A stretch of DNA of 64,000 bases from an uncultured Hyphomicrobiales bacterium (GTDB lineage: Bacteria; Pseudomonadota; Alphaproteobacteria; Reyranellales; JAQSWP01): positions 133,362 through 197,361 of the forward strand of contig CAYLYK010000002.1 in assembly GCA_964388115.1 (NCBI GenBank), given 5' to 3'. Shown here piece by piece: positions 1 through 59,704 of this stretch (within the stretch, counting starts at the first letter, position 1; the number at the start of each line of letters is the position of its first letter). Made by a program: the position numbers and the translations under genes. The notes below the pieces were generated by a model. That model saw only the letters and a list, made by a program, of their open reading frames with translations, was not told the origin of the DNA and searched no databases.

Positions 1-1527
1 CTGTTCACCCTGTGCTGGCAGCGTCAAGGCTCGGTATGGCAAACGTTGCGCGCGCGCGCCGACAGCAACGAAGCGCCATTCGTCGAAGCCTGGCGTCGAT
101 TGGCGGCGATCTTCGCCCGCGCCGACTTCATGCCGCCCTTCGAGTTCTACGGCGAATTGCTGGGCCGCGACGGCGGGCGGCTGAAGCTGTTGCAACGGCT
201 CGGGCCGGAAGCGGGCGATCCGATCGACGAATTCCTCGGCCTGGCGCTGGCACATCAGCGCAACAATGCGCCGTCGCTGCAATCCTTCCTGCATTGGCTG
301 GAAGCGGGCGAGCCCGTCATCAAGCGCGAGCTGGAGCAAAGCGCGCGCGATGAAGTGCGCATCATGACGGTGCACGGCGCCAAGGGATTGCAGGCGCCGA
401 TCGTCTATCTGCCCGACACCACCTTCGATCCGCTGCGCCGGCCCGAGCCGCTGGTGTCCGGCGGCGAAGCCGACAAGCTGCTGCTGGTCTGGCGCGGCGC
501 GGCGGCCGATAGCGACGAGAAAGCCGATGCCCTGCACGCCGAGCGCCAGGCGCGGCGGCGCGAGGAAGCCAACCGGCTGCTCTATGTGGCGCTGACGCGG
601 GCCAGCGACCGGCTGGTGATCTGCGGCGCCAAGGGACCGAAGGATATCCCGCAAAATTGCTGGTATCGGCTGGTGCAGCGCGCCTTCGAAAGCAAGGCGG
701 TCGATCTCGACTTCGACATTGGAGAGCAAACGGGCGAGCCGGTACCGACGCGCCTGCCTTTCACCTTGGGGTCCGAACTGATCGGCGATGAGGCGATCGC
801 CGGCGAGATGCTGCGGCTGGAAAATCCCGATCTGCTGCGCCCAAAGCCCCGCGCGCAAAGCCAGACGCTGCAGATCGAAAAACTGCCCGACTGGATCCAT
901 CGCCTGCCGAAGCCGGAAGAGATTCCACCGCGTCCGCTGGCGCCTTCGCGCAGTCCCGAAGATGCGGCGGCGGAAGCGACGGAGCCTGCCTCCATATCGC
1001 CGCTGCAGCCCGACGGCAGTGCCCGCTTCAAGCGCGGCCTGATCCTGCATCGCCTGCTGCAATATCTGCCCGACCTGCCGGTCGAGAAACGGCGCGACGC
1101 GGCTGCGCGCTATCTGGCACAGCCGGCATTGGAACTGGCTGACCCAATTCAGGTGCAGTGGCTGGATGAGTTGATGGCCGTCATGACAACGCCCGCCCAT
1201 GCGGAAGTCTTCGGCCCGCGTTCGCGCGCCGAGGTGCCGCTGACCGGCACGATCAAAGGCAAGGCTGGGCTTTATGTGGTCAGCGGCCAGGTCGACCGGC
1301 TGGTGATCGGCGCCGAGCGCATTGCCGTCATCGACTACAAGACCAACCGCCCGCCCCCCTTGCGGGTCGAGGATGTGGCCCCTCTCTACTTGCGCCAGAT
1401 GGCGGCCTACCGCGCCCTGCTGCGCCAGATCTGGCCCGGAAAACCCGTCGATTGCCTGCTTCTGTGGACCGATGGGGCGCGGCTGATGGCGCTACCCGAA
1501 GCCCTGCTGGAGTTGCATAACCCATAG
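1..1527 (+). CDS. addA: Double-strand break repair helicase/nuclease AddA, 5'-truncated by window edge
   Basis: Frame open from base 1; UvrD-type motifs MTVHGAKGLQAP and RLLYVALTRA; C-terminal nuclease GQVDRL...IDYKTN; upstream of trxA as usual in alphaproteobacteria. Confidence 0.92.
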   Translation: MFTLCWQRQGSVWQTLRARADSNEAPFVEAWRRLAAIFARADFMPPFEFYGELLGRDGGRLKLLQRLGPEAGDPIDEFLGLALAHQRNNAPSLQSFLHWLEAGEPVIKRELEQSARDEVRIMTVHGAKGLQAPIVYLPDTTFDPLRRPEPLVSGGEADKLLLVWRGAAADSDEKADALHAERQARRREEANRLLYVALTRASDRLVICGAKGPKDIPQNCWYRLVQRAFESKAVDLDFDIGEQTGEPVPTRLPFTLGSELIGDEAIAGEMLRLENPDLLRPKPRAQSQTLQIEKLPDWIHRLPKPEEIPPRPLAPSRSPEDAAAEATEPASISPLQPDGSARFKRGLILHRLLQYLPDLPVEKRRDAAARYLAQPALELADPIQVQWLDELMAVMTTPAHAEVFGPRSRAEVPLTGTIKGKAGLYVVSGQVDRLVIGAERIAVIDYKTNRPPPLRVEDVAPLYLRQMAAYRALLRQIWPGKPVDCLLLWTDGARLMALPEALLELHNP

Positions 1528-1560
1528 TCGAAACAAGGTTTCCCGCTAACCGTTGCGTGC

Positions 1561-1590
1561 CTTGACGCTCCCTGCCCCACTCCCTAGCTT
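1561..1590 (+). promoter_or_regulatory. Putative trxA promoter (sigma70- or RpoH-type)
   Basis: TTGACG(1562-1567)-N17-TAGCTT(1585-1590); also reads CTTG-N18-CCTAGCT. Confidence 0.5.
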
Positions 1591-1642
1591 TACGGTTCAA
1601 TTGGACTTTCCCACCCGGCCGATCCGGCCCCAGGAGTTACCC

Positions 1643-1963
1643 ATGGCAACGGAAAAAGCCACCGACCAGAGCTTCGATCAGGACGTGCTGAAGGCCAGCG
1701 GCCCGGTGCTCGTGGATTTCTGGGCCGAATGGTGCGGCCCCTGCAAGATGATCGGGCCGGTGCTCGAGGACGTCTCCACCGAGATGGCCGGCAAGCTCAA
1801 GGTTGTGAAGATCAACATCGACGAGAACCCGATGACGCCGTCGAAGTTCGGCATCCGCTCGATCCCGACCCTGATCATGTTCAAGGACGGCAAGCCTGCC
1901 GCCCAGAAAGTCGGCGCCGAGCCCAAGGCACGGCTGGTGCAGTGGATCCAGTCGGTGCTGTGA
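1643..1963 (+). CDS. trxA: Thioredoxin
   Basis: WAEWCGPC active site; AGGAG before ATG at 1643 (ORF-track start 1553 is too far upstream). Confidence 0.97.
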
Positions 1964-2010
1964 TCCGTCGCCGGATTTGAAACCAAAGCCCGCTTCGGCG
2001 GGCTTTTTTC
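1864..2010 (+). repeat. Direct repeat copy 1: trxA 3' end plus terminator
   Basis: 1864-1963 aligns to 3091-3190 at offset 1227; downstream ccggatttgaaa...terminator also similar. Confidence 0.95.
1986..2010 (+). terminator. Intrinsic terminator of trxA
   Basis: aaagcccgc-ttcg-gcgggcttt followed by T run. Confidence 0.9.
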
Positions 2011-2079
2011 TGCCCATACCCTTGGCAGGAGAAAATCGCCGACACTAAAATTACGGCGTGTCTTCGTTGGGGGCAAATA

Positions 2080-3090
2080 ATGCAAACGAAATTGTGGGCG
2101 GCGTTTGCCGCAGGCATTGTCGTGTCTTTTTGCGCCGATGTCGCGCAGGCACAACGCAGTTCGACCTTCGAGGAAAAGCTCGAATACAATTTTGACCCGG
2201 CCCGCAGCCACGATATTGCGGGGATAATCGGGATCACGTCGCCGGAACAGTGCCGGGCAAAATGCGTCGCTGACAACCGCTGCCGCTACTGGAATTGGAC
2301 AGAGCTTGGGGTTAATGGGCAGATCGATCCGAAAATTCATGCCAATTGCATCCTGTTGCGCGCGACGACAGGCGCCGTGCGGGGCAAGGAATATGGATAT
2401 CGCTACGTAGGCGGGGCTATCAACAATCAACCATCGACCGCCGGCAACCAGTCAGCCCCAGCCGGAACGCAACCCAATCTCAGCATGCCGAAGCAGGGGC
2501 AGCCTGGCTGGACAGCGGACAGCCGCACGGGCTGCAAAGTGTGGAATGCAAACCCAGAGCCGAACGACATCGTTACGTGGAGCGGGAGTTGCGTTAATGG
2601 CTTCGCCAGCGGCCGCGGCGTAGCGCAGTTCTTCCAGATGGGAAAGCCGGTAGAAAAAACCGAAGGTGAATATCGCAATGGCAAACGCCATGGGCATGCC
2701 ATCTTAAGTTTCCCCGACGGTTCTAGCTACGATGGCCAATGGCAAGACGACAAATTTAACGGATGGGGCGTCGCCAAATACACCGATGGCATGCGCTATG
2801 AGGGGGAATTTCGCAACGACAAAAGGCACGGACAGGGTATCGCTGAATATCCCGATGGCATCACCTACCAGGGGGAATTTCGCAACAACAGAAGGCATGG
2901 TCGCGGCACCATGATCTATCCTGAAGGCGGCCGTTTCGATGGCCAATGGAACGACGACAAACCGAGCGGCCCCGGGACCCTTGTGACAGCCGATGGCCAG
3001 ATTTTCTCAGGCCATTGGTCGAATGGATGTTTGAGCCAAGGCGAGAAGAATGTCGCGATCGCCACGACCAACCAGGAATGCGGGTTTTGA
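2080..3090 (+). CDS. Secreted protein: signal peptide, PAN/Apple-like Cys domain, MORN repeats
   Basis: Hydrophobic N-terminus ending AQA; EQCRAKC...CRYWNW...C pattern; 5-6 tandem 23-aa MORN units ([14 protein letters not shown]). Confidence 0.85.
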
Positions 3091-3190
3091 CCCCACCCTG
3101 ATCATGTTCAAGGACGGCAAGCCCGCCGCGCAGAAATTCGGCGCCGAGCCCAAGGCGCGGCTGGTGCAGTGGATCCAGTCGGTGCTGTAG
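3091..3190 (+). pseudogene. trxA: Promoterless duplicated 3' fragment of trxA (direct repeat copy 2)
   Basis: Reads [32 protein letters not shown], versus QKV in trxA; begins at the first base after the MORN-gene stop. Confidence 0.93.
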
Positions 3191-3209
3191 TTTCCAGTAT
3201 CCGGAATTG

Positions 3210-3237
3210 AAAAGGCCCGCTTCGGCGGGCCTTTTTC
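3210..3237. terminator. Bidirectional intrinsic terminator, homologous to 1986-2010
   Basis: aaaggcccgc-ttcg-gcgggccttt with A/T runs on both sides. Confidence 0.9.
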
Positions 3238-3238
3238 T

Positions 3239-4276
3239 TTAGCGCTGCGACGAGGGTGTCTCACGAGGCAGCGGCACCGCGGCCGGGCGCGGCGGCGCGA
3301 CAGGCTGCGACGCTGGCGCAACGCCCGTGCTGGACTTGAAGCAATTCTCTACCGCCGCAATGGCAGGTCCGACGCCGTCGAGGCTGAACTTGAGCTGCTG
3401 GTTGTCCGCATTCACGATCAACTCGCGGCCGGTGCGCAATTCGCCAATGGCGGGCGCTGTATTGTCGATATCGAAAATCGTCATCCGTTCCGTGAACTGC
3501 TCGGCGACGCCGCTTCGCGCCGGCCGGCCGTCGACGCTGTAGCGAAATTCGAACTTGCGGCCGGCCGACTTGCCGCTGCGGTCGTCGACATAGGACATGA
3601 CCCAGTTGCCACCGGCGGTGAGATAGAAGGCATGGATGCTGCCGCTGCCGACCTTCTGCGACATCGAACAGGATTTGAACTGGCCGCCGTCCTCGCGATA
3701 CAGCTCCACCGCCCAGTTGCCGACGTAGCTTCGCCCATCCGAGGTGCCCGTCTTTTGCTGATCGACCGGCTTGGCGACGGCCCCGCCTGCGCCCGACTTC
3801 CCTGCCGTCACGCAGTTGCGCATTTCGCGCACCGCGGCATCCAGTTGCGGCAGATCGATACGGAAGGCCTCGGATCCGATGGTCATCTCGATAAAGCGCG
3901 CGCCTTGCAATTCCTTGCTGACTTCCGTATTGCCGCCGAGCTCGAATATGAGCGAGCCCTGCGAGACGTTGGCCGTCTCTTGGCGGCGCGGCTGCTGATC
4001 GAACCGCCATGAGACGTCAATCACCTTCGTATTGGGCCAGCGATTGGGCCCGATCGAATGCACCGTCGCATACCATTCGTCATCGATGTCGTAGGAAAGC
4101 CCAAACACCACCGGCCCGTTGGTTCTGTGTACGCCGATGCAACCGGTGAACTCCTTGGCCGTACCGAGCCTGACCGGCTGCACCTGCCAATCGCCGATGG
4201 CTTTCGTTTGCGCTTGAGCAACGCCGATCGAAAGCAGACCCATCAGCAGGGTGAACGAAATGAAAAGCCGCATCAT
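3239..4276 (-). CDS. Secreted hypothetical protein with two tandem ~130-aa domains (paralog 1)
   Basis: Signal peptide ending AQA; each domain starts GxW...F..C and ends NC; Pro-rich tail ending ETPSSQR. Confidence 0.8.
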   Translation of the reverse strand: MMRLFISFTLLMGLLSIGVAQAQTKAIGDWQVQPVRLGTAKEFTGCIGVHRTNGPVVFGLSYDIDDEWYATVHSIGPNRWPNTKVIDVSWRFDQQPRRQETANVSQGSLIFELGGNTEVSKELQGARFIEMTIGSEAFRIDLPQLDAAVREMRNCVTAGKSGAGGAVAKPVDQQKTGTSDGRSYVGNWAVELYREDGGQFKSCSMSQKVGSGSIHAFYLTAGGNWVMSYVDDRSGKSAGRKFEFRYSVDGRPARSGVAEQFTERMTIFDIDNTAPAIGELRTGRELIVNADNQQLKFSLDGVGPAIAAVENCFKSSTGVAPASQPVAPPRPAAVPLPRETPSSQR

Positions 4277-4286
4277 GGCAACTGTC

Positions 4287-5324
4287 CTAGCGTTGTGATG
4301 ACGGCGTTTCCACCGGCAACAGCAACGGCGCCAGCGATTGCGACGTTGGCCTGGGCGGCGCGGGGTGGGATGCGGCGTTGTTGCCCGTGGCGGCCTTGAA
4401 GCAATTCTCCACCGCCGTGATCGCAGGGCCGGCGCCTTCGAGATCGATAATCGCCTCTCTGTTGTCGATCACAATGACCAGCCGACGCCCTTGGCGAAGT
4501 TCGTCTATCGCCTGCCGCGTATCGCCAATATCGAAATCGGTGGTCTTCGCGGTCAGGTTCCTGGCCTGGCCGCTGCGTCGGGGCAAGCCATCAACGCCAT
4601 AGTCGTAGCGAAAAACGCGATCGACAGGGTTGCTCGCCTGCTTGTCGCTTACAGACATCGACCAGCCGCCCGTATAATCCAGAATCAGACCATGCGTCAC
4701 ATCCTGCCGCACCGTTTGCCTGGCCTCACAGAAGCCGAATTGTCCGCCCTTGTCGCGATAGATTTCGACCGTCCAGCGGCCGACAAAGACCTTATCCTCG
4801 AAGGTTCCGGTTTTCGGCAGCACGCCCGATCCGGGCGGCGCGGCCGGCGCCAAGGCCTTCTGGGTCGCAGCGCAGTTTTGCAACTCGCGTACGACCGACT
4901 CGATCTGAGTCAGGGCAACCTCATGCGCGACCTTTACCACCGTGACGTTAATCGCGCGGGCGGAGGCGAACTCCCGCACAGCTTCCGGGCCGATGCCGAG
5001 CCAGAACATCATGCCGTTCGATTTCGGCTCAGTGGTCGCCTGCCGACGGGCCTGATTGTCGAACTGCCAGGAGAGGTCCACGCGCCTGCCGTCGGGCCAG
5101 CGATTTTTCTCGCTTGCCAGCAACATGCCGTGCCACTGGTCCTGATTGTCGAGGACGAGGCCGAAATCCACCGGCAGCTTTGTCCGTTGAATGGCGCGGC
5201 AGGCCATGAATTCGTTGTCGGGCGTGCGGAAGGATTTCAGCTCCCAATCGCCAATCTTTTGCGTTTGCGCCAAAGCTGACGTGGTTGCAAGGAGAACGAG
5301 CAACACAAAGAACGGGCGAATCAT
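4287..5324 (-). CDS. Secreted hypothetical protein with two tandem domains (paralog 2)
   Basis: ATG at 5324 (MIRPFFVLL signal peptide); same 345-aa length, domain layout and ETPSSQR end as paralog 1. Confidence 0.8.
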   Translation of the reverse strand: MIRPFFVLLVLLATTSALAQTQKIGDWELKSFRTPDNEFMACRAIQRTKLPVDFGLVLDNQDQWHGMLLASEKNRWPDGRRVDLSWQFDNQARRQATTEPKSNGMMFWLGIGPEAVREFASARAINVTVVKVAHEVALTQIESVVRELQNCAATQKALAPAAPPGSGVLPKTGTFEDKVFVGRWTVEIYRDKGGQFGFCEARQTVRQDVTHGLILDYTGGWSMSVSDKQASNPVDRVFRYDYGVDGLPRRSGQARNLTAKTTDFDIGDTRQAIDELRQGRRLVIVIDNREAIIDLEGAGPAITAVENCFKAATGNNAASHPAPPRPTSQSLAPLLLPVETPSSQR

Positions 5325-5370
5325 GCGTATAGTTTCGCCACCCTCGCGCGCAATGTCAAAGCCTGTCCCG

Positions 5371-6819
5371 TCAATATCCCGCCGGCGGCGCGAAGCCCTG
5401 GTATTCCTTTTCCAGCATGGAAGCGAAAGCGATGGCCGAGCGATCGCCCATGGCGGGCGCCACGATCTGCACGCCGATCGGCAGGCCTTCCTTGCTGAAG
5501 CCGATGGGCGCCACCGTGCCGGGCAGGAAGGCGACGCCGGGATAGCCGGCCCAGAAAAGCTGGTCCGTCGTCGGCACTTTGCGGCCGTCGACCACGATGG
5601 TGCGCTCGTGCCGCTCGCCCTGCTGGTCATGCGGATAGGCCGCTGAAGCTGCCGCCGGCATCAGCAGGAAATCGTACTCCTCGAAGAAGGCCGCCCATTT
5701 CAGCCGCATCTTCATGCGCTTCTCGTTCATCGCCAGCCAGTCGCGATGGCTGAGCACGTTGGCGCGCGTCATCTGCGCGAAATAGGATTTGTCGGTCGGC
5801 TTCAGCGTCTTCGCGATTTCTTGGTTCTTGGCATAGGCCTCATTAGTCTGCCGTCCGGAAGTCGCCGCGCGCAGCAGGGCAATGTAGACGTCCATCGCCT
5901 CGTCGGTATCGATGTCGGGTTTGGCGCCCTGCACGATCTTGACCTTCTTCTTGCCCAGAAAATCGGCCAGCGCCTGCAAGCGGCCCTGCACCTCGGCATC
6001 GACGGCGGAATTGCGGTCCTCCAGCATCACGCCAATCCTGAACTGCTTCCATTCGCTTTTCTTCGGTTTCGGCAACTCAAGCTTCCAGCCAGCCCCATCG
6101 ATCGCGTCCGGTCCCGACATCGCCGACAGCGCGATGTCGAGATCGGCAGCCGAGCGCGCCAGCGGCCCGATCACCGAGATATCGCCCGGCGCCACGCGAC
6201 CGGGCAGCGCATGACCGCGCGGCGCGCAAATGCCCCAGGTCGGCTTGTGGCCGTAAACGCCGCAATAATGTGCCGGGTTGCGGATCGAGGCGCCGATATC
6301 GGAGCCGGCTTCGATACCCGACAATCCGGCCGCCAGCGCCGCCGCCGAGCCGCCGGACGAACCACCGGGCACGCGCGTGACGTCCCACGGGTTGTTGGTG
6401 GTGCCGTAGATGGCATTGAAGCTCTGCCAGTCGGCCAGCATGAGCGGCACATTGGTCTTGCCGAACAGCACCACGCCGGCCGCCTTCAGCCGTTTCACCG
6501 GCAGCGAATCCTCCTTGGCGATATTGTCCTTCAAGGTCGGATCGCCCCAGGTGGTTGGCGCACCGGCAATGTCGTAGCTTTCCTTGATGGTCATCGGCAC
6601 GCCATGCAGCGGTCCCCAGAACTCGCCCTTCTTGGCGGCGCGATCGGCGGCCTTGGCGCGTTTGCGCGCGCCGTCGACATCCATCCAGATCACGGCATTG
6701 AGTTTGGGATTGAAGCGGGCGATGCGTTCGAGATAGTGGTCGAGCATATCCAGGCTCGAGAGCTTGCCGCGGCGGATCATTCCCGCCAGTTCGCGCGCCG
6801 ATTTGAAAGCGATGTCCAT
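5371..6819 (-). CDS. Amidase signature family protein
   Basis: GPLHGVPMTIKES, GGSSGGSAAALAAG, GSDIGASIRNPA motifs; start at MDIAFKS. Confidence 0.92.
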   Translation of the reverse strand: MDIAFKSARELAGMIRRGKLSSLDMLDHYLERIARFNPKLNAVIWMDVDGARKRAKAADRAAKKGEFWGPLHGVPMTIKESYDIAGAPTTWGDPTLKDNIAKEDSLPVKRLKAAGVVLFGKTNVPLMLADWQSFNAIYGTTNNPWDVTRVPGGSSGGSAAALAAGLSGIEAGSDIGASIRNPAHYCGVYGHKPTWGICAPRGHALPGRVAPGDISVIGPLARSAADLDIALSAMSGPDAIDGAGWKLELPKPKKSEWKQFRIGVMLEDRNSAVDAEVQGRLQALADFLGKKKVKIVQGAKPDIDTDEAMDVYIALLRAATSGRQTNEAYAKNQEIAKTLKPTDKSYFAQMTRANVLSHRDWLAMNEKRMKMRLKWAAFFEEYDFLLMPAAASAAYPHDQQGERHERTIVVDGRKVPTTDQLFWAGYPGVAFLPGTVAPIGFSKEGLPIGVQIVAPAMGDRSAIAFASMLEKEYQGFAPPAGY

Positions 6820-6898
6820 TTTCGTCCCCTGTTGCCTGGCGAGGACGATAGCAGAGCGGTTAGGGGGGAGATAAACTGGATTATTGGGGGAGATACTC

Positions 6899-7915
6899 AT
6901 GATCCGCACATTATGGCTCGCGGCTGTCATCGTTGTTGGACTTGCATCGAATGCCGATTTCGCATGTGCGCAACGCAGCTCGACCTTGGACAACGGGTTC
7001 ATTTTCACCGACGTTGACGGCGCTTATATCGACACCATCCACGTGCCGTCGGCCGAACAGTGCCGCGCTGCCTGCTTGGGTATGGCGCAGTGCCAGGCTT
7101 GGACGTGGAGCGGCAGCAAATGGGGCAATGGCTGCGCCCGCTACAAGACCAGCCAACTTAAGCGCGAAGCCAGTCCTTTCTTCGTCAGCGGAACGGTGTC
7201 GGCAGCCGGCGCAGCACCGGCGGCGCAGTCCTTCCCGTTTCCGCAAACGCCGATGACCCTGATCTTCCGCGTACCGCCGCTGAACGATCCCACGTTCGAC
7301 CGGTATGCCAGCTTCAAATTCACTCTAGTCGAAGGCGATGTAACCAGTGTGCTCCTTCGCGCCTGGGAAGGTCCGCTGAGCATGTTCGACACCGCCACCG
7401 GAAATGATAAGTACGTCAAACAAACATTCGATGAGGCAGTTGGCGACATCGACAACACCAGTTGCTCGATCTCCGCCACGCCCGCACAGATGCGCGCTAT
7501 CTACGTCGGGGCCAAGCTCAACTATACCCGCACCTGCACCAGCTACCACCGAGACGGCGGAATTGGTGAAACTGTCAGTGAGATCGAACGCGTGGTGTTG
7601 CGGACGGAAAAGATCACGGTGCCGATCGGGACGTTCGACGCTTTTGTCGTACGCAAGACCACGCGCTCGCGCTCGCGCTCGCGGATCACGACACCCGAAG
7701 GCGGCATCGATCTGGAAGCAAGCGAGAACGAGAATACGCGCTGGTGGGTGCCGGTGCTGGGCTTCTATGTGCGCGAAACCAGCCGCGCACGCGTTGTCGA
7801 TCGTGTCTTCTCGTCATCGACCATCGAAGCGTATCGCCAGAATGGCTGGGCCTTGCCGCCGAAATCGACTCCTTGGCATGAAGGCGCCACCATGAACGCC
7901 GTGATCAAACGCTAG
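6899..7915 (+). CDS. Secreted protein: signal peptide, PAN/Apple-like domain, unknown beta-rich C-terminal domain
   Basis: 24-aa signal then QRSST; EQCRAAC...CQAWTW...C pattern homologous to 2080-3090 N-terminus. Confidence 0.75.
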   Translation: MIRTLWLAAVIVVGLASNADFACAQRSSTLDNGFIFTDVDGAYIDTIHVPSAEQCRAACLGMAQCQAWTWSGSKWGNGCARYKTSQLKREASPFFVSGTVSAAGAAPAAQSFPFPQTPMTLIFRVPPLNDPTFDRYASFKFTLVEGDVTSVLLRAWEGPLSMFDTATGNDKYVKQTFDEAVGDIDNTSCSISATPAQMRAIYVGAKLNYTRTCTSYHRDGGIGETVSEIERVVLRTEKITVPIGTFDAFVVRKTTRSRSRSRITTPEGGIDLEASENENTRWWVPVLGFYVRETSRARVVDRVFSSSTIEAYRQNGWALPPKSTPWHEGATMNAVIKR

Positions 7916-9216
7916 TTATTCCGCGCCAGCACTGTGCCGGCGAGATAAAGCGAGCCGCAGATCAGAACGCGCATCGGTGAAGCCGCGCTGGCCAGAACTT
8001 GCCGCAGCGCCGCTTCGATCGTCTCCGCCGGCTGGCAGGGAATGCCGACAGCCCGCGCCCGTTCGGCGGCTTCCGGCGCGCTATAGGCCAGGTGCCCTTC
8101 GATCGTCACCGAGCGCGCATCCTGCGCCAGGCCGGCGAGCGGCCGCAGGAAACCTTGCGCATCCTTGCTGGTCAGCATGCCGAAGATCAGGTGCAGCGTC
8201 TTGCCGTCCTGCTCAGCCCAGCGTCGCGCCATGGCTGCCAGGGCGATGCCGCAATCCTCGTTGTGCCCGCCGTCCAGCCACAACTCGTCGCCCGGCCGCA
8301 GCAGATCGACCAGCGGCCCGTACTTGAGTTGCTGCAGGCGCGCGGGCCACTCGACCTTGCGCAAGCCGGTGGCGATGGCGGCATCGCTGACCTCGAATTG
8401 CGACAGCGTCTCCAGCACCGCGATGGCGGTGGCGGCATTGTCGATCTGATGTGCGCCAGCCAGCGCCGGCAGTGGCAAATCAATCCGGCGCGTGCCGCTC
8501 TCATAAGTGAAACCCGTATCGCCCTGCAACGCGCGCCACTCGTGGTGCATGCGATGCAGCGGCGCATTCAGGCGCCTGGCCTCGGCCTCGATCACCGCCG
8601 CGGCCGCATCGCGCTGGCGGCCGACGATCACCGGCACGTCTTGCTTGATGATGCCGGCCTTGTTGGACGCGATTTCCGCCAAGGTATCGCCCAGATACTG
8701 CGTGTGGTCGATACCGATCGGCGTGATCGCCGTCGCCGCCGGCCGGTCGATCACGTTGGTGGCATCGTGAATGCCGCCCAGCCCGACTTCCAGCAGCAGC
8801 GCCTCGGCCGGATGGCGCGAGAAGGCGAGGAAGGCTGCGGCCGTGGTGATCTCGAAATAGGTGATCGGCTTGCCGCCATTGACGCGCTCGCATTCTTCCA
8901 GCGTCGCGCTCAGTTCGTCTTCGGAAATCAGCGCGCCCGCGATCCTGATGCGCTCGTGGAAGCGCACCAGATGCGGCGAGGTATAGACATGGCAACGATG
9001 GCCGGAGGCTTCCAGCATGGCGCGCAGATAGGCAACCAAGGAACCCTTGCCGTTGGTGCCGGCGACATGGATCACCGGCGGCATCCTGCGCTCGGGATGT
9101 CCCAGCGCTGCAAGCAAGCTGGCGATGCGATCGAGCGACAGGTCGATGATGCGCGGGTGCAGGCCCAGCAGGCGCTCCAGCACCTTGTCGCTGGACGGCA
9201 TCATCGTATCGGCCAT
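7912..9216 (-). CDS. folC: Folylpolyglutamate synthase/dihydrofolate synthase
   Basis: HVAGTNGKGS, YTSPHL, EVGLGG, LDGGHN, GSLYL motifs. Confidence 0.96.
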   Translation of the reverse strand: MADTMMPSSDKVLERLLGLHPRIIDLSLDRIASLLAALGHPERRMPPVIHVAGTNGKGSLVAYLRAMLEASGHRCHVYTSPHLVRFHERIRIAGALISEDELSATLEECERVNGGKPITYFEITTAAAFLAFSRHPAEALLLEVGLGGIHDATNVIDRPAATAITPIGIDHTQYLGDTLAEIASNKAGIIKQDVPVIVGRQRDAAAAVIEAEARRLNAPLHRMHHEWRALQGDTGFTYESGTRRIDLPLPALAGAHQIDNAATAIAVLETLSQFEVSDAAIATGLRKVEWPARLQQLKYGPLVDLLRPGDELWLDGGHNEDCGIALAAMARRWAEQDGKTLHLIFGMLTSKDAQGFLRPLAGLAQDARSVTIEGHLAYSAPEAAERARAVGIPCQPAETIEAALRQVLASAASPMRVLICGSLYLAGTVLARNN

Positions 9217-9235
9217 GGGAGAAGACTGAAGAAGG

Positions 9236-10174
9236 CTATTTCACCCGCACCGCACCAGCCAGGCGGTGAGCGCCGGCATTGGCTTTGGCCGAAACGGCCG
9301 GCAGGTTCGGCGTCGGCCGCCCCTCGCCCAGCAGCGCCAGCAGGCGGATCAGCGTGTCGCGCAGCTGATGGCGGTGCACCACCATGTCGATGGCGCCGTG
9401 ATCGAGCAGGTATTCGGCGCGCTGGAACCCGTCGGGCAGCGCCTCGCGGATCGTGTCCTGGATGACGCGCTGGCCGGCGAAGCCGATCACCGCGCCCGGC
9501 TCGGCGATGGCGATATCGCCCAGCATGGCGAAGGATGCCGTCACGCCGCCGGTCGTCGGATCGGTCAGCACGACGATATAGGGCAGGCCCGCTTCCTTGA
9601 CGTCCTGCACCGCCACCGTGGTGCGCGGCATCTGCATCAGGCTCAAAATGCCTTCCTGCATGCGTGCGCCACCAGAGGCGGGAAACACGATGAACGGGCA
9701 GCGCTTCTCGACCGCGAGCCGGGCGCCCATGACGATGCCTTCGCCCACGGCGATGCCCATGGAGCCGCCCATGAAATTGAAATCGAACACCGCCGCCACG
9801 GCGGGCTTGCCGCCGAGCTTGCCCGAGGCCACCCACAGCGCATCGCTCTCGCCCTGCTTGGCCTGCGTCTCTTTCAGCCGGTCGGCATAGCGCTTGCGGT
9901 CCTTGAACTTCAGCGGGTCGACCACCGCCTTGCTGAGCGCGTGCTTCTCGAACGCGCCATCGTCGAACAGCTGCTTCAGCCGGACCTCGGGCCCGATGCG
10001 CAGATGATGATTGCAGAAGCTGCAGACCTGCAGATTGGTCTCCAGATCGCGATGGAACAGCATCTGCTCGCAATTGGGACACTTGATCCAAAGATTGTCC
10101 GGCGCGGCCGGTTTCTTCTCGCCGCCGACCAGCGCCTTGATCTTGGGACGAACGAAATTAGTGAGCCAATTCAT
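9236..10174 (-). CDS. accD: Acetyl-CoA carboxylase carboxyltransferase beta subunit
   Basis: Zn ribbon CPNC...[27 protein letters not shown]. Confidence 0.97.
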
Positions 10175-25266: not shown

Positions 25267-25971
25267 TCACTGCTTTAGCGGTACAGTTGGCGCTGCCAAG
25301 ATGCCTGCCATTTCCCCATAGCCCCTATTCTGCGCATGCTGAAGGGCGGTGACGCCGCCGCGATCGCCGATCTCGGTTTTCGCTCCGGCGGCCAGCAGCA
25401 GGCGCACGATCTCGACATGGCGCGCTCCGCCATCGCCCAGGATCACGGCCTCGAGCAGCGCGGTCCAGCCGAGATTGTTGACATGGTCGAGCGGCGCGCC
25501 GGCTTCGATCAACACCCGCACCGGCTCGACATGTCCAAGATGCGCAGCGGCGATCAGCGCCGTGCCCTGATAGGGGCTGGTGATATTGCGCGGATTGTTC
25601 CCGCCTTCGATGGCGAGCCGGACCATGCGCGCATCGTCGCGCACCGCGGCGATGGTAATGAGATCGTATTGCTGGCTGTCGAGCGCGTTGGCGTCGGCGC
25701 CTTTCGCCAGAAGAAGCCGCGCCACCTCGTGATGCCCGCCATGTCCCGCGACATGCAGCGGCGTGCGTCCGTGCCCATCGCGCGCGTTGAGATCGGCGCC
25801 CGAGGCTGCCAGCCGCGTCGCTGCCGCAAGATCGCCCGCAGCCGCAGCGGCATGCAGGCCGCGATAGGCCGCGATCTCAGAGGCGCTGGGCGGCACCTGA
25901 GCTTCCGCAGTCAGCGGAACGCAGAGCAACGCGAACATAGCTAGAATCGACGGCAATCTCAGGCTGGCCAT
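25267..25971 (-). CDS. Secreted ankyrin-repeat protein
   Basis: Signal peptide ending AEA; G.TPLH.A, GTALIAAA, GWTALLEA repeats. Confidence 0.88.
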   Translation of the reverse strand: MASLRLPSILAMFALLCVPLTAEAQVPPSASEIAAYRGLHAAAAAGDLAAATRLAASGADLNARDGHGRTPLHVAGHGGHHEVARLLLAKGADANALDSQQYDLITIAAVRDDARMVRLAIEGGNNPRNITSPYQGTALIAAAHLGHVEPVRVLIEAGAPLDHVNNLGWTALLEAVILGDGGARHVEIVRLLLAAGAKTEIGDRGGVTALQHAQNRGYGEMAGILAAPTVPLKQ

Positions 25972-26042
25972 TGACGAACCTCCCGACAGGATCATGCTAG
26001 AAGGCACTGCTTGCCTTGAGCAGCCATGATTATACTGAGCCA

Positions 26043-26603
26043 ATGACCATTGCCTATGTCATGGGTCCGTCCGGCGCCGGCAAGGATACGTTGCTGGCTC
26101 TGGCTCGGCACGCGCTGGAAGGCAGCACGATCCTGTTCGCACACCGCTTCATTACCCGTGAAGCTGCGGCGGGACACGAGAACTTCATCGCGCTGTCGGA
26201 TACGGAATTCGCCGCTCGCCTCCGGCTGAACCTGTTCGCCTTGGCCTGGGATGCGCACGGTCTGCGCTATGGCGTCAGCCGCGAGATCGAGCTGTGGCAA
26301 GCAGCAGGCTGCAAAGTGGTCGTCAGTGGCAGCCGGGCGCATTTCCTCAAGAACTTGACCCAGCGCCAGGACGTCACGCCGATTCTTGTCACCGCACCGG
26401 CCGAGATACTGGCCGAGCGCCTGCGTCGCCGCGGCCGCGAAGATGCGGCTGCCATCAATGAGCGCCTGGCACGGGCGAAGGCCTTTACCGTCGACCATCC
26501 GCGTTTAGCTCGGATCGTCAACGACGGGGCGCCGGAAAAAGGGGCGACGCAACTGGTCGAAGCCCTGCGTGCGGCAAACACAGAGCGAGGAGAATCGGCA
26601 TGA
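26043..26603 (+). CDS. phnN: Ribose 1,5-bisphosphokinase PhnN family
   Basis: VMGPSGAGKDT, HRFITR, WDAHGLRYG, VVSGSRAH, RGRED. Confidence 0.85.
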   Translation: MTIAYVMGPSGAGKDTLLALARHALEGSTILFAHRFITREAAAGHENFIALSDTEFAARLRLNLFALAWDAHGLRYGVSREIELWQAAGCKVVVSGSRAHFLKNLTQRQDVTPILVTAPAEILAERLRRRGREDAAAINERLARAKAFTVDHPRLARIVNDGAPEKGATQLVEALRAANTERGESA

Positions 26604-58513: not shown

Positions 58514-58604
58514 GGAGGGGTGGCCGAGCGGTTGAAGGCGCACGCCTGGAAAGTGTGTATGGTCTAAAAAGCCATCGCGGGTTCGAATCCCGCTCCCTCC
58601 GCCA
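58514..58604 (+). tRNA. tRNA-Ser(GGA)
   Basis: 91 nt; stem CACGC/GTGTG with loop CT-GGA-AA; long variable arm; G discriminator plus CCA. Confidence 0.96.
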
Positions 58605-58867: not shown

Positions 58868-59704
58868 ATGTCGACCAATCCATGGACGGATGCGGAGAAC
58901 GATCTGATCGTCGCGGATTATTTCGCGATGCTCGCGGACGACATCGCCGGACGCCCATACACGAAGGCGAAGCATCGACAGGCCCTTCTCCCGCTACTTA
59001 ACAACCGCTCAGACGGATCCGTCGAGTTCAAGCATCAGAACATCAGCGCGGTCCTGAAGGGACTTGGCGAGGATTGGATACCCGGCTACAGGCCAGCATT
59101 CAATTTCCAGATGTCGCTCGTCGACGCTGTGGTCCGATGGCTGACCCGGAACCCGACATGGTTCGCCCGATTGCCGAATTTCGGTCCGACGACCGGTCTT
59201 CAAGAAGCGGCGCCAATCTGGATTGGCCCCCCGCCCACTTTGTCGAACCAACCGCCACCACAGGAACTGGAGCAGATGCTACACATCGCCCGCAAGTTCG
59301 ATGTTGCCGGCCGGGATGAACAGAACCGTGCGCTCGGGCGCGCCGGCGAAGAGCATGTACTGGCCCATGAGCGAGCGTCGTTGCGATCGGCGGGGCGCGA
59401 CGACCTGGCTCGCAAAGTGCGTTGGGTATCTGACGAGGATGGAGATGGGGCTGGCTACGACATCGCCAGTTTCAGGCCAGATGGTCAATCGCGCGCGATC
59501 GAGGTGAAGACCACCAACGGATGGGAACGGACCCCTTTCTACATTAGTCGCACTGAACTTGCGGTGGCGGACGAACGCCGATCAGAATGGTGCCTGTTCA
59601 GGCTGTGGAACTTCTCGCGCGAGCCGAGGGCTTTCGAACTTTATCCGCCCCTAGATGCCCACGTCACGCTCACAGCCACGACCTTCTTGGCTGGCTTTCA
59701 TTAA
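58868..59704 (+). CDS. DUF3883 (NOV_C) domain protein, putative PD-(D/E)xK nuclease
   Basis: N-terminal EFKHQNISAVL; C-terminal GEE, DGAGYDI.SF, IEVKTT; codon usage differs from host. Confidence 0.85.
   Translation: MSTNPWTDAENDLIVADYFAMLADDIAGRPYTKAKHRQALLPLLNNRSDGSVEFKHQNISAVLKGLGEDWIPGYRPAFNFQMSLVDAVVRWLTRNPTWFARLPNFGPTTGLQEAAPIWIGPPPTLSNQPPPQELEQMLHIARKFDVAGRDEQNRALGRAGEEHVLAHERASLRSAGRDDLARKVRWVSDEDGDGAGYDIASFRPDGQSRAIEVKTTNGWERTPFYISRTELAVADERRSEWCLFRLWNFSREPRAFELYPPLDAHVTLTATTFLAGFH

Follow-up and report, generated by a model that had tools for sequence, protein, structure and literature searches.

The thioredoxin gene trxA of an uncultured Hyphomicrobiales bacterium is followed by a 1227-bp unit that carries a single gene, and behind that gene the 3′ end of trxA and its transcription terminator occur a second time. 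The unit lies in a stretch of 64,000 nucleotides (assembly GCA_964388115.1, contig CAYLYK010000002.1, positions 133,362 to 197,361), which we call the window and whose numbering is used below. The gene encodes a secreted protein with PAN and MORN domains (PAN/MORN), and beyond the second trxA 3′ end lie two paralogous genes that converge on it, orf345a and orf345b. We consider it probable, at roughly 0.6, that the 1227-bp unit is the scar of a 3′-end displacement, in which general recombination between two allelic versions of the region downstream of trxA brought a PAN/MORN cassette into an orf345-type locus. An earlier note on this DNA had seen in the same unit a small circle integrated by a Campbell-type crossover, and possibly a hotspot of gene capture.

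Results

The 3′ end of trxA recurs at a distance of 1227 bp

A repeat search paired positions 1864-1961 with 3091-3188 (95% identity) and the terminators at 1985-2011 with those at 3212-3238 (93% identity), in both cases at a spacing of 1227. In the pairwise alignment the homology is unbroken over 1864-2011 (copy A) and 3091-3238 (copy B); the spacer, which reads TGATCCGTCGCCGGATTTGAAACC in copy A, contains indels of +3 and −3, and the 1227 period is thereby preserved. The earlier note had stated that the last 100 nt of trxA recur at 3091-3190, right after the stop codon of PAN/MORN, with this same period, and both the search and the alignment bear it out. The PAN/MORN stop codon TGA occupies 3088-3090 and is followed directly by the first base of copy B (3091), and the last base of copy B (3238) directly precedes the stop codon of the converging orf345a. 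Copy B, which begins at codon 74, lacks a trxA start codon; the trxA gene that ends in copy A is intact.

The differences between the copies that the note had listed were all reproduced exactly. They comprise four synonymous third-position changes (copy A/copy B: 1867 G/C, 1897 T/C, 1903 C/G, 1930 A/G), a fifth coding change at 1910 (G/T) that replaces valine with phenylalanine in copy B, the stop codons TGA (copy A) and TAG (copy B), and a compensatory pair in the terminator stem, which is A-T in copy A and G-C in copy B. Both terminators fold well (−23.5 and −23.9 kcal/mol), and the hairpin of copy B folds on the minus strand too, which suggests that terminator B now ends transcription of both PAN/MORN and the converging orf345a. 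Identity within the 148-bp repeat is spread across blocks of 29, 19, 31 and 16 nt. The trxA 3′ end and its terminator also hold blocks of 16-31 nt that do not vary among the family of loci described below. In the 64 kb there are exactly two occurrences each of the 29-mer and of the terminator core, compared with 0.00-0.03 expected, and the repeat is therefore not due to chance.

Related loci include exact empty sites

Relatives were taken from the closest species-representative genomes and from metagenome contigs reached through protein look-ups. In all, 101 loci were fetched, 96 of them with trxA. The closest representative genomes are metagenome-assembled genomes labelled Reyranellaceae, Rhodospirillaceae or Alphaproteobacteria, in which the C-terminal part of AddA is 73-76% identical to that of the window. 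The order addA-trxA is kept in 80 of 80 alphaproteobacterial loci; this universal adjacency is conserved synteny, and the special role that the earlier note had considered for the neighboring addA (AddAB) finds no support in it. Across the same 80 genomes, between 15 nt and more than 9 kb separate trxA from the converging folC, so that the gap after trxA is a variable spot in general.

Between trxA and folC, the 14 loci of the family contain only PAN, orf345 and amidase genes. In one allele (E) the amidase gene follows trxA and its terminator (L005, L007, L098, L099, L100 and L101). In a second (P) a PAN-domain gene stands right after the terminator, encoding either a PAN/MORN protein (L004, L097) or a PAN-DUF3108 protein (L095, L096). 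In a third (O) two orf345 genes converge on the terminator (L006, L091-L094). The window is the only locus in which a PAN gene and orf345 genes occur together, as a composite of P and O.

Two of the O loci, L092 and L093, are exact empty sites: the sequence corresponding to window positions 1729-1863 is joined to that from 3091 onward, minus one period, and collinearity with the window continues through orf345a and orf345b to 5501 and 5710, respectively. In both, trxA reads uninterrupted through the position of the joint and is followed by a spacer and terminator of the copy B type. The contigs of L091 and L094 end within the repeat and are uninformative on the presence of the insert. The empty-site alleles that the earlier note had predicted for an inserted unit thus exist, and they lack exactly one period. 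Its further expectation, that different cargo genes would be found between the same repeats, did not hold: the only other case, L004, combines a homologous PAN/MORN gene with a decayed remnant of trxA (see below), and in the other 12 family loci the content after trxA varies with no duplication. Since only PAN-family genes occur with a remnant, the notion of an undescribed capture hotspot with diverse cargo finds no support. A scan of the metagenomes of the Joint Genome Institute (JGI) with the invariant 29-mer returned only 7 loci, none of them close and none with two copies.

The two copies and the cargo have separate affinities

The stop codon, spacer and terminator of copy B match L091, L092 and L093 at 46/51, 46/51 and 45/51 positions, whereas copy A matches these loci over the same region at only 38-40 of 51, with indels. 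Copy A leads to another relative. The window from 1988 to 2441, which takes in the promoter, the PAN N-terminus and, at its left end, the right arm of terminator A, is collinear with L095 (7900-8390) at 88-90% nucleotide identity; the promoter-bearing segment 2012-2079 is 90% identical, and the PAN N-terminal module (2080-2440) is 88% identical in nucleotides and 84% in amino acids. The core genes of L095 are less similar to those of the window (addA 76%, 5′ part of trxA 85%, amidase 78%). Because the similarity is higher in the PAN module than in the core genes, the two are phylogenetically incongruent, which argues that the PAN 5′ module has moved between lineages. These affinities agree with the claim of the earlier note that the two copies evolved in separate contexts, the spacer and terminator of copy B being orthologous to L091-L093, and the terminator right arm of copy A with what follows it to L095. 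A local tandem duplication was also considered, and was rejected because it would have doubled PAN/MORN as well and because each copy has an orthologous context of its own.

Within the PAN/MORN gene, the PAN module that it has in common with a PAN-DUF3108 gene is followed by an unrelated MORN part, which makes the gene a mosaic. No nucleotide homolog of the MORN part (2441-3090) was found, and no close full-length homolog of the protein was present among 5.8e9 database proteins. The composition of the cargo is atypical. Its GC content is 56.8%, with a value of 0.65 at third codon positions (GC3), compared with 0.79 for orf345a, 0.75 for orf345b and 0.831±0.034 for 24 housekeeping open reading frames (ORFs), the lowest of which has 0.749.

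The composition of the cargo bears on the direction of the exchange. One could envision the reverse of our proposal, namely that trxA-terminator-PAN/MORN was the original state and that a piece consisting of a trxA 3′ fragment, terminator, orf345a and orf345b (with part of the amidase gene) came in from an L091-like donor, anchored by homology in the amidase gene and joined illegitimately right after the PAN/MORN stop codon. The structure is symmetric, and homology on one side with an illegitimate joint on the other would account for it just as well in this direction. Moreover, loci with a PAN gene directly behind trxA are common in the family (L004, L095, L096, L097), and the 5′ part of the window trxA differs from the orf345-type relatives at 11/133 and 12/133 positions, no fewer than from L004, L006 or L096 (8-9/133). 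However, the compositional outlier is PAN/MORN and not the orf345 genes, the PAN module has its incongruent similarity to L095, and the 3′ end of the window amidase gene is closest to the orf345-type L093 (92.9% nucleotide identity against 87-90% for the others, although only 340 nt are comparable). We consider the reverse direction unlikely.

Changes in the two copies suggest that copy B was functional until recently

In the coding part of the repeat, any two members of the family differ at 3-13 of 97 sites, and copies A and B, with 5 differences in the 97, are about as far apart as two genera. That these five differences persist makes recent homogenization by gene conversion unlikely. When polarized against the relatives, copy A is derived at T1897 and A1930, which are two of the synonymous sites, and in its TGA stop codon. 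Copy B is derived at position 4, which lies beside the joint and is possibly part of it, and in the change from valine to phenylalanine; position 40 is ambiguous. The earlier note had taken the excess of synonymous changes as a sign that both copies evolved under selection for trxA. The excess itself stands, with 4 of 5 changes synonymous (P = 0.016 under a synonymous fraction of 0.25), but the argument is weak when taken alone, because most of the synonymous changes sit on the functional copy A and only 2-3 changes fall on the non-functional copy. A different comparison carries more information on copy B: it has 2-3 private changes and no indel in its 97 coding nucleotides, compared with about 4 private changes in the 25 nt of its own spacer and 10% nucleotide divergence of orf345a from its closest ortholog, L091. 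This disparity argues that copy B belonged to a working trxA until recently.

The closing pair of the terminator stem has the states G-C (copy B and most relatives), G·T (L095, L007) and A-T (copy A), an ordinary compensatory path for terminators that function. The last codons of copy B, GTG CTG, match copy A and the family consensus, whereas the nearest relatives L091-L093 have GTT CTC. At position 40 it is copy A that matches L091-L093, and at positions 94 and 97 copy B matches copy A and not these loci (about 5 sites are informative). The latter two sites hint at a possible exchange point in the 31-nt identical block 1931-1961/3158-3188.

L004 carries a second, decayed remnant

The PAN/MORN-like protein of L004 is 34% identical overall to that of the window and has the same architecture and the same C-terminal ECGF. 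Twenty nucleotides past its stop codon lies the sequence TCCAAATTCGGCATC, which matches trxA codons ~66-70 over 15 nt. Joined directly to it is the second (3′) half of the trxA terminator (GCTTCGGCGGGCCTTTT), and next comes the amidase stop codon (L004:12764-12831). The remnant has an internal deletion between CATCCGC and GGCCCGC and no longer folds as a terminator. Its two collinear exact matches, of 15 and 17 nt, exceed all background matches in 13 loci, which reach at most 14 nt. In L097, a close relative of L004, the remnant is gone, and only 4 nt separate PAN/MORN from the amidase gene. The L004 remnant also shows how far an old remnant can decay, the one in the window being intact. It begins at least 24 nt further 5′ in trxA than copy B (codon ~66 instead of 74), and this different 5′ limit argues against a fixed attachment (att) site and a site-specific crossover.

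The existence of two remnants raises the question of whether they descend from one ancient duplication. In that case copy B would have been kept similar to trxA by gene conversion, and the empty sites of L092 and L093 would be secondary deletions between the repeats. The collinear matches behind PAN/MORN in L004 fit such a history, as do the last codons of copy B, which equal those of copy A; furthermore, recombination between the 148-bp repeats, by popping out the unit, would restore an empty site that is clean and has a spacer of the copy B type. The two remnants, however, differ in their 5′ limit and in their downstream background (amidase in L004, orf345a in the window), one is heavily decayed and that of L097 has disappeared, and the low identity of the two PAN/MORN proteins was noted above. 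With five differences in 97 sites, conversion has not been active, and without conversion a neutral copy B would not stay free of indels. We therefore think a shared ancient duplication quite unlikely.

The greater 5′ extent of the L004 remnant could also be read as a stage in the progressive 5′ erosion of a complete second trxA paralog that once followed PAN/MORN. A complete paralog at this position in relatives was what the earlier note had named as evidence against an insertion. No second TrxA-like match is found in any of the 96 trxA-containing loci except in the window's own genome, and the spacer and terminator of copy B, contiguous with orf345a, are the ones that belong to the resident trxA end in the empty-site relatives. 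Of the alternatives weighed here, a truncated paralog strikes us as extremely improbable.

No recombinase is encoded in the window or at the site in relatives

Pfam scans of 54 ORFs yielded no integrase, transposase or other recombinase in the 64-kb window, in agreement with the earlier note, and none was found at the site downstream of trxA in the 14 family loci. These results bear on the possibility that the unit is an integrase-dependent, cis-mobilizable islet whose repeats are attL and attR and whose recombinase is encoded elsewhere in the genome, of which the 64 kb are the part inspected. As in integrase-mediated islands and cis-mobilizable elements that reside in the 3′ ends of tRNA or protein genes, the direct repeats at trxA are a gene 3′ end, the gene is left intact and the cargo is atypical in composition. 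Such elements have a recombinase in or near them and a short identical att core with a fixed crossover point. The trxA unit has neither a recombinase, in the window or among the PAN, orf345 and amidase genes of the family loci, nor a short conserved core, its repeat being long (148 bp) with differences spread along it. The boundary of the remnant varies between the window and L004, and no larger element bounded by the same repeats is present at the site in the 101 loci. A cis-mobilizable islet is, in our judgment, very unlikely.

The arrangement recurs in a second assembly

The identical arrangement is present in a second public assembly, L001, at 100% identity. In addition, a unitig of the Logan collection (L003, from SRR14271334; 1256 nt) runs from the end of copy A through the joint between PAN/MORN and the trxA fragment. 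The length of L003 is one period plus 29 nt (1227+29), and the same contig is recorded in two samples. L003 was examined as evidence for a circle and rejected as such, since the unitig is bounded by the 31-mer common to both copies, that is, by a break in the de Bruijn graph. It illustrates that diverged direct repeats, when they have a 31-mer in common, can yield a contig that looks circular.

A chimeric assembly, in which two co-occurring strains, one with PAN/MORN and a remnant and the other of the orf345 type, were merged within an identical block of 31-51 nt, would produce a similar picture. The relatives are all derived from metagenomes, copy B looks like a mosaic that follows the consensus as far as position 98 and resembles L091 from the stop codon on, and the unitig breaks precisely at the shared 31-mer. 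Against this stands the fact that a 664-kb contig and an independent 39.7-kb contig follow the same path. The joint between PAN/MORN and the trxA fragment has no k-mers common to its two sides and must exist in the reads, so that even a chimera would leave a real trxA remnant after PAN/MORN. We regard a chimera as highly improbable.

Other features of the window

The features of the locus are collected in Table 1. The TrxA protein is 94-99% identical to those of L004, L006 and L007. The amidase gene is found after trxA in L004-L007 and L098-L101. Orthologs of orf345a (93, 85, 81 and 73% identical, the first of them in L091 from ERZ22666056) all adjoin a trxA terminator. The two orf345 genes stand in tandem, both encode secreted proteins outside any Pfam family, and they have only 4 close homologs among the 5.8e9 proteins, and in L006 (11971-14689) one orf345 copy is a 541-aa version with an internal duplication.

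Table 1. Features of the trxA locus and its surroundings in window coordinates
Feature	Coordinates	Strand	Remarks
addA, 3′ part (helicase-nuclease AddA, C-terminal 493 aa)	46..1527	+	Pfam UvrD_C, PDDEXK_1; conserved left flank; window begins inside addA
trxA, intact (thioredoxin, 106 aa)	1643..1963	+	Pfam Thioredoxin 1e-34
Repeat copy A	1864..2011	+	Last 100 nt of functional trxA (1864-1963), 21-nt spacer, terminator A
Terminator A	stem 1985-1993/1998-2006	+	A-T closing pair, then T-run
Putative cassette promoter, sigma-70-like	2022..2051	+	TTGGCA, 18 nt, TAAAAT; 10/12 consensus matches
PAN/MORN cargo gene, secreted, 336 aa	2080..3090	+	Signal peptide; Pfam MORN 6e-33, PAN_4 (PAN/Apple domain)
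Novel (illegitimate) joint TGA/CCCC	3088..3094	+	PAN/MORN stop abuts trxA codon 74
Repeat copy B	3091..3238	+	Displaced promoter-less trxA 3′ fragment (3091-3190), spacer, bidirectional terminator B (3212-3238)
orf345a, secreted	3239..4276	-	No Pfam family; resident gene beside trxA terminator in empty-site relatives
orf345b	4287..5324	-	Paralog of orf345a (42% aa identity)
Amidase	5371..6819	-	Pfam Amidase 6e-96; conserved right flank of variable interval

An ORF of 46 aa (3050-3190) consists of 13 out-of-frame codons from the 3′ end of PAN/MORN fused to the displaced trxA fragment, and it has been entered as a gene in the public record (L001 9408-9548). It is probably an annotation artefact of that fragment. 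A second PAN-domain gene (PAN_4 plus a DUF3108-like domain) lies as an insert between amidase and folC at 6899-7915 and overlaps the folC stop codon; in all other family loci the gap between these genes is 37-60 nt. A flanking duplication around this second PAN gene was searched for and none was found.

Farther along, a tRNA-Ser(GGA) gene (58514-58604) is followed by an ORF with a NOV_C domain (58868-59704) and a low GC3 (0.68), which may mark a small insertion of the tRNA-associated kind. A protein with ankyrin repeats (Ank_2, 5e-27) is encoded at 25267-26043 amid housekeeping genes, so that the window holds several eukaryote-like repeat or adhesion domains, namely ankyrin, PAN/Apple and MORN. 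Its other Pfam families are those of housekeeping genes (accD, trpA/B/F, pyrF, IHF, rpsA, aroA, rpoN, lptABC, gltBD, thrS, infC, rplT, pheST, lepA and others). An Rfam scan of positions 1-10000 gave nothing above threshold; sub-threshold matches to RsmY (24 bits, gathering score 57) and to a Brucella small RNA (23 against 218) were dismissed as chance.

Discussion

We suggest that the resident allele was trxA-terminator-orf345a, as kept in L092 and L093, and that the incoming DNA came from a related lineage with a PAN-domain gene directly after trxA. The cassette would have consisted of the donor trxA 3′ end, terminator, promoter and PAN/MORN, cut just past the stop codon, and recombination within the conserved trxA 3′ end and terminator would have inserted it. 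The outcome would be an intact trxA ending in copy A, with the resident 3′ end and terminator (copy B) shifted 1227 bp downstream; copy B would be left as a silent fragment, and terminator B would serve PAN/MORN and orf345a. The joint between TGA and codon 74 would be the sole illegitimate event. One possible origin of this joint is the closure point of a small circle, which then entered by a single crossover of the Campbell type. Alternatively, it may have been made in the recipient, by a one-sided homologous exchange plus an illegitimate join. A dedicated recombinase would not be required. The anatomy of the repeat, the empty sites, the distinct affinities of its copies, the unusual composition of the cargo and the lack of a recombinase in the window are observed; the direction of transfer, a circular intermediate and the involvement of RecA are what we infer here.

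Several points weigh against this reconstruction. The donor lineage is unsampled, the protein database having no close full-length homolog of PAN/MORN, and the trxA coding part, with its 3-13 differences in 97 sites, is too conserved to place either copy phylogenetically. The last codons of copy B, which are unlike those of L091-L093, call for a crossover, a conversion tract or homoplasy. The direction of transfer rests mainly on base composition, the similarities of the flanks having failed to settle it. Finally, a similar decayed structure exists in L004, and the architecture could therefore be older than we assume.

The closest precedent is the displacement of 3′ ends at rhs and type VI secretion system (T6SS) loci. 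For the displacement of rhs C-terminal tips, homologous recombination with circular intermediates has been proposed, and the displaced tips are promoter-less direct repeats accompanied by inserts of low GC content (Jackson et al. 2009, PMC2935791); a comparable displacement has been suggested for arrays of T6SS effector and immunity genes (Kirchberger et al. 2017, PMC5361080). As at these loci and at those for contact-dependent inhibition (CDI), the trxA region appears to have received DNA that is homologous to the 3′ part of a conserved gene, brings new genes downstream of it and is installed by recombination there, with the resident 3′ end pushed downstream as a promoter-less direct repeat, a low-GC insert and no integrase. 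The order found in the window is the expected one: trxA, then laterally acquired DNA, then a promoter-less fragment that repeats the 3′ part of trxA. The mechanisms proposed for rhs and T6SS loci are likewise circular intermediates or homology-facilitated illegitimate recombination. Only at rhs, CDI and T6SS loci, however, does the new tip alter the protein by bringing in a toxin domain, together with an immunity gene, and do arrays of displaced tips accumulate. The trxA locus has no different C-terminal domain, cognate immunity gene or multiple tips; the gene concerned is a housekeeping gene whose two 3′ ends encode the same residues except for Val/Phe, a single end has been displaced, and the cargo is a separate gene that brings its own promoter.

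The geometry is also that of Campbell-type integration. Direct repeats flank the insert, the upstream copy completes trxA and the downstream copy is truncated at its 5′ end, and the empty-site alleles contain exactly one copy of the repeat. In conjugation experiments with Escherichia coli, 56 of 60 integrants were of the single-crossover type with duplications of 109-950 bp (Amarir-Bouhram et al. 2011, PMC3240628), a range that includes the 148 bp seen here. The Campbell-like restoration of trxA envisaged by the earlier note is therefore in keeping with a known signature, since a single crossover with a circle leaves the insert flanked by two copies of the homology segment (PMC3240628). Unlike the integration of a suicide plasmid, the event at trxA was a natural one between diverged lineages (divergence of 5% in the coding part and ~25% for the spacer) that required no vector, and its circle is a hypothesis. 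Homology-facilitated illegitimate recombination (de Vries & Wackernagel 2002; Prudhomme et al. 2002; Meier & Wackernagel 2003, as these are cited in PMC5361080) resembles the case at trxA in that one homologous anchor and one non-homologous joint would import DNA for which the recipient has no homolog. A joint of this kind is present at 3090/3091, but the true form of this process yields deletions (PMC3240628), and at trxA the recipient DNA was duplicated rather than deleted.

A further-reaching and doubtful idea is that the trxA 3′ end, together with the terminator, serves as a homology arm that travels with its cargo: a PAN-type gene, once enclosed by trxA 3′ sequence, could pop out and come back as a circle, or spread between related genomes by double crossover, with the RecA of the host alone. 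If this were true, the site would be a recombinase-free, recurrent capture site for single genes at a housekeeping gene, and the window (a fresh remnant in an orf345a background) and L004 (a decayed one in an amidase background) would be two independent landings. As it stands, the locus looks like a further instance of a known outcome of recombination, this time at a housekeeping gene, and not like a new kind of mobile element.

The locus offers a clean and datable natural case in which a single gene was added beside an essential-type housekeeping gene without mobile-element machinery, and for which the empty site and the displaced gene end are at hand and the donor module can be traced in part. 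For annotation, it means that promoter-less gene fragments of this sort should be recorded as displacement scars and not as small ORFs. The displacement logic of the rhs, CDI and T6SS toxin loci would then operate at an ordinary locus too, and extreme nucleotide conservation of a gene 3′ end and terminator beside a variable convergent gap can by itself create an entry point for recombination.

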